A DNA stretch of 64,000 bases. Source: Octopus vulgaris (Eukaryota). How positions within the stretch are numbered: position 1 is the stretch's first letter; each line of letters starts with the position of its first letter. The notes beneath the pieces were generated by a model. The model did no database searches, had not been told where the DNA came from, and saw nothing but the letters and a program-made list of their open reading frames with translations. This document shows positions 12,593 through 63,545 of the stretch, piece by piece. The stretch spans positions 24,800,001 through 24,864,000 of the forward strand of contig OX597837.1 in assembly GCA_951406725.2 (NCBI GenBank). The letters run 5' to 3'. A program made the translations under genes and the position numbers.

Positions 12593-12641
<49 letters not shown>

Positions 12642-12666
12642 TTTATTTAAAGCAGCAGAAAATTCA

Positions 12667-12718
12667 ACAAAATCTGTTACTCTGAGTTTCTCGTTGCCGT
12701 TCATCAGACAGTTTTTGC
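12667..12718 (-). ncRNA. Minimal type I hammerhead ribozyme motif
   Basis: Minus strand GCAAAAACUGU-CUGAUGA-A CG GCAA CG A-GAA-ACUC A GAGU-A^ACAGAUUUUGU: intact core, GUA triplet, stem I 10 of 11 bp paired, palindromic stem III. Confidence 0.65.
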
Positions 12719-13375
12719 TAGAATGGAACCGATATATCAATTCAATCTAGACTCTTACAAACGCTACACCTTTAAAAAATATATATATTTATAAGTAAGG
12801 GCAAAAGAAAAAAATTTCAATGCCAAAATATGCTGAAAATAGACACATATTTTGACATTAGAAATTTTTTCTTTTGCCCTTACTTATAAATTGTTGATGA
12901 ATTTAACCTTTAAAGGTATTTTTTAATATGCTGGCCACTGATTAGAATTTTTTTTCGAAAAACTTTTATCCTGCATTAGATATATGTATATTTTTCACCG
13001 GAATAGTTCAATACTGAATTTTTATTCCGACTAGACAATTTGTTACCGAAATGCATTGCGAATAAGCCTGCCATTTTCATAGATATGTAAAGATAAACAT
13101 TCGTACATGCTACGATGAATTCTACGGTTGGCTATCGAGCTTGTAATGTTATGTTTTCTCTTATATTTCTTGAGTTTGTTGCACTGATGAACATGAAATG
13201 CATATTCTGCATTAAATGCGAAATCACATGTGATATGTAACTGAATTCTTTTTTAAAATGATGTGTTTTGAAGTTTTGCGTTCGGTAAAATTTTGTTTAT
13301 TTTTAGTAGTTTTGACCGCATTGGTCCCTCTTAGCGTGTTGGTATCTACGAATAGTAGTACCCTCAATATAATAT

Positions 13376-19429: not shown

Positions 19430-19789
19430 TGTGTATAAGGCAGATAAGAAAATGGAGAGGATATAAAATCGACAAACATTAGCCAGTAAACATTCCATTA
19501 TATCTATTTATTAGATGGTAACAAACATGTGATAAGTGGTACAAGTAACCGAATGAGATCAGCCAATAAATATGTAAGCCGCGTGTGTACCGTTGGCGAT
19601 TTTTTTCCTCTGTCTTCCCTTCTCTGGATCTTCCCTTCTCTGGATCTTTCCTTCTCCTATGTTTCCGACAAAGAGCTCTGCTCAAAACGTTAAACCCTCC
19701 TTCTTTCCTTCTTTCCTGAGCGTCCAATAATACTATATTTGTTCCATGTCCTTGTGTTGTTGTGTTTTTTTGTGCTTTCTTGTTTGGAT

Positions 19790-19832
<43 letters not shown>

Positions 19833-30215: not shown

Positions 30216-30330
30216 TGTGAGCAAATAGGTGCAAAACATGCTAGGTATAACTGTACTCAAATACCAAAGCTCGAATAAAACAGTACTTTAGTGAAGCTAT
30301 ATTTTTTTCCTCCGTCTTCCTTTGTCTCTT

Positions 30331-30365
30331 GTTTCTGATGAAGAGCTTTGTTCGAAACGTAAAGC
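30331..30365 (+). ncRNA. Minimal hammerhead ribozyme motif in a TA-flanked repeat
   Basis: GUUU-CUGAUGA-A GAGC UUU GUUC-GAAAC GUA^AAGC; stem III reduced to the palindrome ACGU; decayed paralogs at 19661-19695 and 63377-63414. Confidence 0.6.
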
Positions 30366-30495
30366 TACTTTCATTTCCTTCCCTGAGCGTCTGCTAATAC
30401 CTCTTTGTATCGTCTATCTGGATGTTTTGTTGTCCCTTTTTGTATCACCTAGTTGTCCGGGTGTTTTGCGTTCTTGTCCCATTTTGTATTTTATA

Positions 30496-30547
<52 letters not shown>

Positions 30548-31543: not shown

Positions 31544-31964
31544 GGATCTTTTCAGCAGTTTCTAACATAATTTCTAGGTAACTAAAAATTTTAAACTTCA
31601 TATACTGGTAGAATGTGTTTATAAAACATCTTTTTCTCTTGGCTTTATTGAGAAAATTCTATAGTTTGTGAGATATTTCTTGTTTTTTTCTTCAATTTCT
31701 GCAATTTCAACCAATCAATGACGTCTATTGAGGTAAAAAAAACTTTCTGTGCCGTATGAATATGTCCCTCCTTTAAGAAACAGATTGGGTTTATTTACAT
31801 TTGTGAAGAAAAAAAAGATACTCTTCCCCCCACCCCTAACCCTAACCCTAACCCTAACCCTAAAACAGATTGAAATGCAATAGATCGATACTAGGGTCAT
31901 ATTTATGGGTGACAATTTCATATGACACCACTAGAAAAAACCGCCGTTCAAACCGAAAAGATCC
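31544..31964. mobile_element. Merlin-like MITE containing (CCCTAA)5
   Basis: Termini GGATCTTTTC/GAAAAGATCC; 8-bp TSD GAATAATT at 31536-31543 and 31965-31972; telomeric repeat at 31834-31863. Confidence 0.8.
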
Positions 31965-47201: not shown

Positions 47202-48619
47202 TACATTGATGTATACTGATATAAATATGTGTTGTCTATATGTATATTTTATCTTACTATATATATGTATGTAGTGGAGGCACATAGCCTAGTGGTTAGA
47301 GCAGCTGACACATGGTCAAAAGATTGCGGGTTCAAATCTTGGACCAGGTGGTGTGTGTGTTTATGAGCAAAACACCAAAGCTCTCTGCAGCTCTGGCAGA
47401 AGGTAATGGCAAACTTCTGCTGACTCTTTCGCCACAAATTCCTCTCACTCTTTTTTCCTGCTCACCTGTGACAGACCAGCGTCCTGTCCAGGTGGGGAAC
47501 CTATATGTCAACGAAACTGGGAAACTGGCCCTTATGAGCCAAGCATGGCTCAAGAAGGAACAAACAACACAATATATATGTATGTATGTATGTTTGTGTA
47601 TACACATATGTTCTTACTGATTAATCTATTCACCTTTTCTTTACATCTTGCTACACCCATCATTATACACATCTTAAAATTAATTCTATTCTAATTGTAC
47701 AATGAACCCCTGCATTTCATCCCCCACATCTATGCTTTCTCATTGGTAGTGTTTCCCTGTATACAGTCGAAGGATTGCAGGTTCGAGATGTGTAACGGCA
47801 GATATTGAATTGTAAACAATTTTAGTTGAAGTCGAGGGACACCAATTGTAACGGCAGAAATTGATTTGTAAACAATATTATGGTATGTTGGAGTCAGCAG
47901 ATGCAACGATAAAAATTTGTTGGTAATGCATACTGTAAGATGTGAAAGATGGATAATGCATTAAGTTTTAAGGAAACATTTATTTACCGTTACGTTACAA
48001 TACCCTGCCTTGACAGACAGGTTATATTCAATTCAAAAGCATGCAAAAGTAAAGTTTGTGCTTGTGTCCTCTTCATTGTTTAGTAGTAGTAATTGCCGAG
48101 AGAGATAGGATGATGTTGTAAGAGAACAGAATTAGAGCTAGTGAGAATTGTAGGGCGAGGAACGTTGTGTCACAGTTGCTGGCAGTAAACTTCATTTCTC
48201 CCTCTGACCAATGTTCTAGCAGGTTAGCTAGACTTTATTCTCACTGAGTTGTCACTGCAGTGACTAACTGATTTTTGCTTGGGATGTGCTGGCTTATATA
48301 ACTATCCAGAAGGATAGATATATCATTGAGAACAATAGATTTAGTTGGTGGTCTTGTTATCTCTATTTCTAGCTTTTGGTGGAGTAGAAGAGGTTAGAAA
48401 GGGTCAAGTAATGAAGACATTATTTTGGCCTAGCTAAATGCATCTGGAAAATGTAAAACTGCTGTCAGGGAAAAACCATTGTTCCATCGTGGAAAAAATT
48501 CTGTTGCAGGGTTTATTTTAAATTTGGCTATGGTAGATCGAATCCACTTCATGCATGCAAGATTCACTACAGATGCTTAAATGTATTTGTTTTCTCAAAT
48601 AATTGCACTTTATGTTTGA

Positions 48620-48703
48620 GGTTCTGATGAAGCTGTAAGGTGTTACTCCAGCACTCAACTATGAGTGCAATGCCTCTTATACAGCGGGAAACAGCTGTAA
48701 GCT
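48620..48703 (+). ncRNA. Hammerhead ribozyme motif with extended stem II
   Basis: GGUU-CUGAUGA-A-[GCUGUA..GCACUCA acua UGAGUGC..UACAGC]-GG-GAAAC AGCU GUA^AGCU; palindromic stem III, weak stem I. Confidence 0.5.
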
Positions 48704-48758
48704 AATGAAGTTCATGGGATAATTGTTTATTTCTTTGTCATCTCTTTTCATATATATA

Positions 48759-58852: not shown

Positions 58853-59485
58853 CATATATACACATATATATACATATATATATACATATATATATACATT
58901 TATACGTTTTTATATATATATATATATATATACACACACATATATATATACACATATATATATACATTTATAGGTGCAGGAGCGGCTGTGTGGTAAGTAG
59001 ATTGCTTATCAACCACATAGTTCCAGGTTCAGTCCCACTGCATGGCACCTCGGGCAAGTATCTTTTACTATAGTCTTGGGCCATTCAAAGCCTTGTGAGT
59101 GGATTTGGTAGACAGAAACTGAAAGAAGTCCATCGTGTATATGTGTGTGTGTGTGTGTGCACGCACATGTGTGTCTGTATTTGTCCTCTCACCAACGCTT
59201 GACAACTGTAACTCAGTGGTTCCACAAAACAGACCGATAGAATAAGTACTAGGCTTACAAAGAATAAGTCCTGGGGCCGATTTTACAGTTTGCATAAAAG
59301 GAAAAGAAAACACAATATCCCATCCAAAAATAAAAAGTATTTTTGAAAATCCAAAACAACATCTAGATTATGGCCGGGAGACAACACTTTGCTCAAAGTG
59401 GTTGCCCTCAGCTTTCACCACAGCCTTGAGATGGCTCCAGCACCTGGCTCATATGTTCATCACTGTGTCCCTTGGAACATTTCTG

Positions 59486-60316
59486 TGGCCTTGGCTGCCA
59501 ATTTGGCCTTGGCTGCCAACTTGGCCTTGGCTGCCAACTTGGCTTTGGCTGCCAACTTGGCCTTGGCTGCCAACATGGTCTTGGCTGCCAACTTGGCCTT
59601 GGCTGCCAACTTGGGTTTGGCTGCCAACTCAGCCTTGGCTGCCAACTTGGCCTTGGCTACCAACTTGGTCTTGGCTGCCAACTTGGCCTTGGCTGCCAAC
59701 TTGGCCTTGGCTGCCAACTTGGTCTTGGCTGCCAACTTGGCCTTGGCTGCCAACTTGGTCTTGGCTGCCAACTTGGCCTTGGCTGCCAACTTGGCCTTGG
59801 CTGCCAACTTGGCCTTGGCTGCCAACTTGGTCTTGGCTGCCAACTTGGCCTTGGCTGCCAACTTGGCTTTGGCTGCCAACTCAGCCTTGGCTGCCAACTT
59901 GGCCTTGGCTACCAACTTGGTCTTGGCTGCCAACTTGGCCTTGGCTGCCAACTTGGCCTTGGCTGCCAACTTGGCCTTGGCTGCCAACTTGGTCTTGGCT
60001 GCCAACTTGGCCTTGGCTGCCAACTTGGCCTTAGCTGCCAACTTGGCCTTGGCTGCCAACTTGGCCTTGGCTGCCAACTTGGCCTTGGCTGCCAACTTGA
60101 CTTTGGCTGCCAACTTGACCTTGGTTGTCAACTTGGCCTTGGCTGCCAACTTGACTTTGGCTGCCAACTTGACCTTGGCTGTCAACTTGGCTGTCAACTT
60201 GGCCTTGGCTGCCAACTTGGTCTTGGCTGCCAACTCGGCCTTGGCTGCCAACTTGGTCTTGGCTGCCAACTTGGCCTTGGCTGCCAACTTGGTCTTGGCT
60301 GCCAACTTGGCCTTGG
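59486..60316. repeat. 18-bp minisatellite TTGGCCTTGGCTGCCAAC, ~46 units
   Basis: Direct reading; variant block repeated at 252 bp (59629/59881). Confidence 0.97.
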
Positions 60317-60579
60317 TGTTTCAAGCAGAATGGTTGGTGTCTTTCTAACCACGTTGCTCACATAGTAATCCATAGAATTACAATTTCAGGAAATAAGAGG
60401 CCAGAAACTGGGGCTGGTGAAGTTGTAGAAATTCTCCAACAACCACTTCTGACTCTTTCTAAAGGTACAGCAAGAAGCCAAATCCTGCTGCTTCACATAT
60501 GGCCTTCCAGCTGCGCACTAGAAGACCATATTGACTGCAGTCTCTAGCTGCTTCACATAACTGTTTGAATTGAGCTTAA

Positions 60580-62313: not shown

Positions 62314-63487
62314 TGTATGTATGTATGTATGTATGTATGTATGTGTGTGTGTATGTATGTATGTATGTATATGTATATATACATGGAGTAGACGAAGCAG
62401 AGGCGGCTGAAGAAGGGGAATTTTCCTTGTGTTGTATGTCTTGTACATAGTTTTTTCGTTGTTTAAGAAAAATGTCCATTTCCTTGGTTTTGTTTTTATG
62501 TTTTCGTTTCTCATTGTGTTCGACGGTTTTTTGGTGTCCTGTATATATATGCATGTATATATACATATAGATGTAGGTACGTACATATATGTATGTGTAT
62601 ATGCATATGTTTTATTTATTATTTTGCTATTATATATATGTGTGTGTATATGTATGTATATATATGTATATGTATATGTGTAGTGTGTATGTGTATGTGT
62701 GTGAATGTGTGTTGGTGTGTCAGTGTGATATATGAATATATATGTATATCTATCTATCTATCTGTGTGTGTGTGTCTGTGTGTGTATTGCCGCCGGTGCC
62801 ACTGGAAGGGGAGTAATATTATTGCTGAAGATACCACATTGCATTTGACACTCTGGCTGGGGATTTGGTTAATTTCTATGTCTATTTTCTGCTTCTGCAT
62901 TTATTACATGTTTTTGAGTGGCTGTGTGGTTAAGTGGCTTGCTTACAAACCACATGGTTCCAGATTCAGTCCCACTGTGTGGCACCTTGGGCAAGTGTCT
63001 TCTACTATAGCCTCGGGCCAACCAAAGCCTTGTGAGTGGATTTGGTAGACGGAAACTGAAAGAAGCCTGTCGTATATATGTATATATATATGTATGTGTG
63101 TGTATATGTTTGTGTGTCTGTGTTTATCCTCCCAACATTGCTTGACAACCGATGCTTGTGTGTTTACGTCCCTGTAGCTTAGCGGTTCGGCAAAAGAGAC
63201 CGATAGAATAAGTACTAGGCTACTAGGCTTCCAAAGAATAAGTCCTGGGGTCAATTTGCTCAACTAAGGGTGGTGCTCCAACATGGCCACAGTCAAATGA
63301 CTGAAACAAGTAAAAGAGTAAAAGAGTATATATATATATATATATATATATTTCTCTCCTTGTTTTTTACTGTGTATCTTTCTGTCGAAGAGCGTAGGCT
63401 CAAAACATAAAAGAGCGCTATACCAATACATTTGTTTGTTTGTACTCCACCTGCCTTCATCTTTTGTTTATTTTCGTAAACTTTCCC

Positions 63488-63545
<58 letters not shown>

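Follow-up and report, generated by a model that had tools for sequence, protein, structure and literature searches.

What is a 35-nt hammerhead motif that cannot form its own stem III doing beside a TA tract in the genome of Octopus vulgaris, and does it still cut? In the 64,000-nt stretch of DNA analysed here (the window), the motif is very probably a minimal type I hammerhead (min-HHR) within a lone, 5′-truncated pseudo-LTR (pLTR) stub of a Neptune-type Penelope-like element (PLE). The element's own enzymes (reverse transcriptase and endonuclease) likely placed the stub at the TA tract, and the copy, now worn, is predicted inert.

A minimal hammerhead in a chimeric stub

The motif occupies coordinates 30331–30365 on the plus strand, as defined by the sequence itself, a descriptor with shuffles, and a published consensus. 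It reads GUUU CUGAUGA A GAGC UUU GUUC GAAAC GUA AAGC, such that stem I (GUUU/AAGC; 30331–30334 with 30362–30365) is followed by the core CUGAUGA (30335–30341), an extra A after A9 (30342) that was absent from the preliminary description, stem II (GAGC-UUU-GUUC; 30343–30353, with the closing pair G10.1–C11.1 formed by G30343 and C30353), GAA (30354–30356), the palindrome ACGU (30357–30360) in place of a stem with loop III, and A17 (30361), the predicted cut site being 3′ of 30361. The preliminary description had reported intact CUGAUGA and GAAAC-GUA words with paired stems I and II and no loop III, and the sequence agrees; its suggestion that stem III can form only with a second copy likewise fits a motif that has ACGU and no loop III.

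A strict descriptor (the core, an optional extra base, a G-C-closed stem II of at least 3 bp, and a stem I of at least 4 bp) matches the window once, at this position, and none of 300 local dinucleotide shuffles. The looser descriptor of the preliminary description matches six times versus a shuffled mean of 0.66 (maximum 4 in 200), and the motif exceeds the shuffled background by either measure. That the loose form appears 0.66 times per shuffled window is the one point in favour of a chance match, a reading with next to no probability in view of the strict result, the 7,605 canonical CUGANGA matches genome-wide versus 14 in the control, and the conserved position within the pLTR. An Rfam scan of the window (E ≤ 1) includes no hammerhead family among the best 150 of 176 matches, these being microsatellite-driven microRNA matches only.

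The obligate-dimer idea of the preliminary description corresponds to variants that Lunse, Weinberg and Breaker are said to have described, with a diminished stem III, an association with PLEs, and cleavage as dimers. Dimer cleavage of small PLE hammerhead variants is attributed to these authors (RNA Biol 14:1499) in the relevant part of PMC6765202. Min-HHRs were described in PLE pLTRs by Cervera and de la Pena in 2014 (PMC4209133), and the supplement gives a consensus of a U-rich segment, CUGANGAH, a G..C stem, GAAAN, a palindrome, and NUH. The window motif has CUGANGA, GAAA and NUH with stems I and II, and shares with the min-HHRs the lack of loop III, a palindrome at positions 15.2–16.2 (A-C-G-U at 30357–30360), an unpaired base between 9 and 10.1 (A30342), and the G10.1–C11.1 pair. 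The octopus motifs in general also share the 4-bp stem I and a U-rich flank; as in the published cases, copies are mostly single and dispersed, with inverted pairs and a few full PLEs, and examples from the mollusc Lottia in the supplement have the same C-G palindrome. Stem II is shorter in octopus (4 bp), and octopus is unnamed in the searchable supplement. The structural traits flagged at the outset are thus all present in the parts of PMC4209133 covered, and the design cannot be called poorly described; that report found min-HHR monomers to be inactive and dimers weakly active.

The stub belongs to PLE lineage A and spans 30301–30400 (plus strand; the start is approximate, with lineage A recognisable from ~30301), comprising a U-rich leader, the motif, and the first 40 nt of the tail. 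Lineage A's own tail is then replaced by 90 bases (30402–30491, plus strand) that come from the 3′ tail of another repeat family, one with a high copy number, and the 3′ end is a (TA)n tract (30492–30540), the usual insertion context of lineages A, B and C. The two parts join at a short CTTTG-like microhomology, where the alignment ends are loose (30402–30404), and the 30400/30402 junction was found at no other locus among those retrieved; it would be explained by template switching or by one insertion nesting within another, in each case at short microhomology. A sequencing-run contig from another source matches 30240–30323 with one difference, and none of the sequencing-run contigs crosses the junction; among the runs listed for a lineage A/C pair at L159, none was of RNA. 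The donor repeat of the foreign tail (L002–L030) has the hammerhead words in reversed order, i.e. GAAA upstream of CUGAGGA/CUGAAGA with CAAGA/UCUUG pairing, ~20–90 nt upstream of the shared tail, and these are absent in the window copy. Other repeats of the window include five CCCTAA copies of an interstitial telomere-type repeat (31834–31863) and a long tandem repeat with an 18-bp unit (59347–60348) that is open in several frames and reads like LALAAN repeats.

Relative to a typical lineage A copy, the window copy has two private changes, GCUC to GUUC in stem II and AAAC to AAGC in stem I, both of which are wobbles (G-U for G-C and G-U for A-U, respectively). The predicted pairing probability of stems I and II is ≤0.01 in four sequence contexts, an alternative hairpin is predicted at −6.4 kcal/mol compared with −1.4 for the hammerhead fold, and the predicted ACGU duplex is worth only −1.7 kcal/mol; stem II of a typical lineage A copy has a predicted probability of 0.55. 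The window copy is therefore predicted to be inert, with the caveat that folding programs undervalue hammerhead junctions and ignore protein. A hairpin in which UUUC pairs with GAAA above stem II was rejected as a conserved structure, having no covariation and a closing pair that is broken in lineage C; it is lower in predicted energy than the hammerhead in lineages A and B and is a possible off-state.

There is no intact partner on the same strand of the window, the only relatives being broken motifs 10.7 and 33 kb away, no tandem hammerhead units are present at the locus, and the window's ORFs and a tblastn search with PLE proteins reveal no PLE frame. Could this one copy have been co-opted, so that it cleaves a host transcript when paired in trans with a transcribed relative, of which there would be thousands? 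Its core and palindrome are intact, as in just 19 of 72 unselected A-type copies, and both private changes retain pairing as G-U. However, a copy in four is intact by chance of decay, the wobbles weaken both stems with loss of predicted folding, and a 4-bp intermolecular helix would contribute about −1.7 kcal/mol, and we regard co-option as exceedingly improbable. CpG sites decay fastest in this family (0.19 versus 0.07 for the non-CpG core).

Two further stubs in the window are related to the motif. A lineage B stub (19622–19817, plus strand; family core CCGACGA, i.e. U4C) includes a motif at 19661–19695 reading CCGACAA...AAAAC-GUU, with G8A and G12A decay in addition to U4C, and a lineage C stub (63351–63522, plus strand; family core CUGUNGA, i.e. 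A6U) includes one at 63377–63414 reading CUGUCGA...AAAAC-AUA, with G12A and loss of the palindrome (ACGU to ACAU) in addition to A6U. These had been described as paralogs that keep their pairing, and both the homology and the stem I pairings stand as written, but neither motif is intact, the GAAA being broken in each, and they lie outside the six loose matches. The sites at 12667 (minus strand), 48620, and the inverted pair 48893/48943 all have CUGANGA...GAAAC...GUA, but fail the strict stem test (no G10.1–C11.1 closing, or a poor stem I) and belong to three other repeat families. Among the six motifs of four designs that had been counted in 64 kb, there is thus only one intact motif of the 30331 design rather than three. 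The segment 48876–49004 is a near-perfect inverted repeat of two head-to-head CUGAAGA...GAAAC-A-GUA repeat ends, a form also seen at L284, L020, L290 and L231. Segments 12630–12760 (minus strand) and 48600–48730 (plus strand) represent two further repeat families with hammerhead-like cores; in one, which has a loop III of 5 nt and a stem II of 2 bp, the copies are 95–99% identical, and the other has a long stem II and a ACAGCUGU palindrome.

Parent elements of the three lineages

The genome (2.8 Gb in 227 contigs) contains 197 exact 33-base matches to the subfamily of the window motif, versus none in the control. Lineage A copies are ~230 bp with (TA)n at the 3′ end and variable 5′ ends, and the longer ones also include, further upstream, a CA-rich UTR and, beyond it, the end of a GIY-YIG frame. 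At four distinct loci (L155/L181, L157/L189, L174/L182 and L242, three of them from 30 loci chosen by the upstream UTR) a GIY-YIG C-terminus with a CxxxxCxxC-like linker lies 1.2–1.5 kb upstream in the same orientation. No full-length or long-frame lineage A element was found in one protein search with 150 scored matches, mostly of lineage B, and placement of the motif at both element ends is shown for lineages B and C only.

Lineage B, a young sister lineage, was retrieved with the lineage A endonuclease fragment. At six of eight long-frame loci the motif is in both pLTRs, ~6 kb apart and flanking a frame of 1008–1061 codons; the long-frame elements are mutually 95–99% identical in DNA and seven of the eight loci have the CCGACGA core. 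The 1008-codon frame includes ADKGG, YIDD, CSRSRCNTC and YVGQT, in which we take the DKG motif and the linker to be represented. For lineage C, the endonuclease was at first linked to the motif in three of 40 sites, and when loci were chosen by the endonuclease CUGUUGA was found downstream in all 20, with both pLTRs in four. Here the pLTR motifs are 4.5 kb apart, two frames are 99.8% identical over 922 residues, and profile matches are to RVT_1 (E = 1.3e-7) and GIY-YIG (E = 0.007). The GIY-YIG scores of the B and C frames (19.8 and 17.1 bits) are below the Pfam cut-off of 22.6, as is the RVT_1 score for lineage B relative to its own.

All three lineages are thus linked to elements encoding a reverse transcriptase and GIY-YIG endonuclease, lineage A through its position downstream of GIY-YIG and lineages B and C through both pLTRs. 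The C-terminal GIY-YIG, Cys-rich RT-EN linker, DKG motif and (TA)n targets that the parts of PMC8557442 covered give as Neptune features are represented by the elements with the 1008-codon frame, and we interpret the three lineages as PLEs with pseudo-LTRs that are probably of Neptune type, a clade placement made by linker cysteines and TA context rather than by a tree of named references. An endonuclease tree of this genome's elements only splits A plus B from C (100/100), its root being unreliable with a long outgroup. A second PLE family in this genome has a 781-codon frame with RT and GIY-YIG plus an upstream frame (L119 minus strand, L096, L100), and its pLTR motif, UUGAUAA...GAAAC-AU-GU, is a U3-A8 core variant that in L119 is present in both terminal repeats. 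It was ruled out as the parent, being 28% identical to lineage B, and a PLE fragment near L260 considered as a lineage C link belongs to this family and was dropped.

The preliminary description had pointed to TA targeting, and the copies do end at (TA)n. It had also supposed non-autonomous retroelements, but the carriers are 5′-truncated stubs of autonomous Neptune-type PLEs.

Arrangement and ends of the stubs

Of the 207 distinct motif sites at the loci retrieved, 172 stand alone; within 600 bp, an inverted neighbour is present for 28 and an unlike neighbour on the same strand for seven. Inverted stub pairs are a PLE hallmark (PMC8557442, in the parts covered). Lineage A stubs are also found head-to-head or nested with B or C stubs (L077, L040, L082, L153, L088, L181), which suggests a template switch or the insertion of one stub into the TA end of another.

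Could these be non-LTR retrozymes, non-autonomous elements whose dimeric hammerheads cut short transcripts into 170–400-nt circles that are reinserted at TA tracts? Most copies are short (150–250 bp), share a fixed 3′ end and have 5′ ends that cluster, and like non-LTR retrozymes (PMC7229834 and bioRxiv 10.64898/2026.07.22.740005, each as far as covered) they have a type I hammerhead, pLTR ancestry and short units, retrozymes being reported in the bioRxiv source to derive from PLE pLTRs. However, the retrozymes described in PMC7229834 have canonical type I hammerheads in tandem repeats, and tandem arrays together with 170–400-nt circles define the group, whereas arrays of 150–400-bp units, or of three or more copies, are absent among the 207 sites, where the seven same-strand neighbours are unlike copies and there are no head-to-tail hammerhead units. 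Longer copies also grade continuously into UTR and ORF, and coding parents exist. Small retrozyme circles thus have no support here, and we consider a retrozyme origin very unlikely.

The ends of the stubs bear on how the PLE transcripts are copied. For 29 tail-bearing stubs in contiguous sequence totalling 654 kb (464 kb surrounding the window plus 190 kb of C1 picked for its many copies), 24 of the 5′ ends, taken as alignment ends, are 49–178 nt upstream of the predicted cut and none is within 5 nt of it; two of the remaining five are at −7 and −15 and three at about +72. One copy in an extra hand-picked 10 kb begins at the cut position. These ends indicate templates that were uncut or re-joined, and a ligated unit-length circular template (4.5–6 kb) would equally yield stubs spanning the cut.

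The ends are in line with the anole Poseidon PLE (PAc), for which the parts of PMC11167929 covered report a protein-dependent hammerhead, without which insertion still proceeds in vitro. Like the octopus PLEs, PAc has a pLTR hammerhead, AT-rich targets, and reverse transcription from downstream of the motif on uncut RNA. It differs in being of Poseidon rather than Neptune type with a canonical core, and in having a motif that overlaps the start codon, whereas the octopus long frame starts some 250–450 nt further on.

Under the PLE stub reading, a double hammerhead would arise in a parent transcript when its two pLTR copies pair through ACGU, and would cut slowly, probably helped by the element's protein. 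Reverse transcription would start ~110–125 nt downstream of the cut position and usually end shortly past the motif, leaving stubs, and most templates are presumably copied uncut, because the genomic stubs run through the cut site. Once inserted, copies would decay neutrally. The two sister lineages would have retained the fold with one U-turn base changed (U4C in B, A6U in C), likely lowering cutting further but not stopping their spread.

Core variants and the role of the fold

A single descriptor applied genome-wide returns 43,115 matches versus 54 in the control, bearing out the large population that had been proposed. Canonical cores account for 18% of these, with CCGANGA (U4C) cores contributing 11,149 matches (10 in the control) and CUG(not A)NGA cores 24,361 (30 in the control), the latter being A6U in 98 of the first 100 listed. 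On visual inspection, lineage B stems predominate among the first 100 canonical matches, which mostly lie one CpG-type change from CCGACGA, so truly canonical lineages are rarer than the figure of 7,605 suggests; CUGACGA is present in both repeats of one full element (L234). The core changes of lineages B and C are fixed, are present in near-identical long-frame elements, and outnumber canonical cores, and both lineages are likely still mobile.

Across lineages C3, G5, A9, the extra A, stem II, the A's of GAAA, C15.2 and U16.1 are kept, and G8, G12 and G16.2 deviate only in the two decayed window copies (19661 and 63377), with the endonucleases ~60–67% identical and a mean column identity of 62% in the motif comparison. 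Between A/B and C one stem I pair is swapped from G-C to C-G, a single event matched in 11 of 500 shuffles, and young lineage B copies have a U-U mismatch in this stem. In lineage C, all four bases occur at N7 and A, U or C at H17, with G17 found 341 times versus 24,361; freedom at N7 together with avoidance of G17 implies that the fold is still under selection. Among the first 100 G17 matches, about 30 form a small separate family, CUGUUGA-GGUAGCGAACCAC-GAAAC-GUG, that combines A6U with G17 (e.g. C1:106735002 and C3:6597737), a motif that by its sequence should not cut.

Alternatively, the motif, the canonical lineage included, may no longer be a ribozyme but a conserved RNA handle, i.e. a hairpin plus palindrome used by the element's protein or for RNA dimerisation. 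The U4C or A6 changes in 82% of the 43,115 matches, the low activity of single CUGA changes in a full mutant scan (PMC9901934, as far as covered), the stem I mismatch of the youngest lineage B copies, the A6U + G17 family, and the insertion of a cleavage-dead anole PLE regardless (PMC11167929) all favour a handle. Yet G8, G12, C3, G5, A9, GAAA and U16.1 are retained despite the divergence of the endonucleases, the freedoms at N7 and position 17 are those of a working hammerhead, and changes at the same two U-turn positions as in lineages B and C are tolerated elsewhere: U4C is a viable natural viroid variant, slow but functional, and A6C is a natural variant of phage Bcep176, slow and Mn2+-rescued (PMC3088659 and PMC7151607, in the parts covered). 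On balance, we think it rather unlikely that the motif serves only as a handle.

The viroid and Bcep176 variants are, in these sources, single rare cases with tertiary contacts, whereas in octopus the changes are fixed in more than 10,000 copies per lineage on a minimal fold. The parts of PMC4209133 covered report U3-A8 as the only core variant, while the octopus sister lineages fix U4C and A6U. In the text covered by our literature search there was no U4C, A6U or CUGUNGA core for PLE hammerheads, no description of either change fixed in whole autonomous PLE lineages, and no hammerhead described from octopus; Lunse et al. and data given only in figures may bear on this, and absence from print is not thereby established.

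We tentatively propose, at somewhat less than even odds, that the A6U and U4C lineages, as the most abundant and most recently mobile PLEs of this genome (about 24,000 and 11,000 copies, respectively), use de-tuned hammerheads whose cutting depends on the two pLTR copies being clamped together by the element's protein (or Mn2+), such that slow, licensed cutting leaves most RNA to be copied uncut and U-turn-weakened lineages out-spread canonical ones. If so, A6U would join the functional natural cores as a new one, and more than four-fifths of the ribozymes in such genomes would go undetected in standard CUGANGA scans.

The window copy is of little importance in itself: decaying PLE stubs of this kind number in the thousands, and their motif has been in the literature since 2014. 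Why PLEs retain a hammerhead is an open question in the parts of PMC8557442 and PMC11167929 covered. Canonical descriptors detect only 7,605 of the 43,115 such motifs here, and this one genome holds a natural allelic series, in which the core is canonical, U4C or A6U while stem II and the palindrome are nearly identical, and which could show whether selection acts on cutting or only on the fold.
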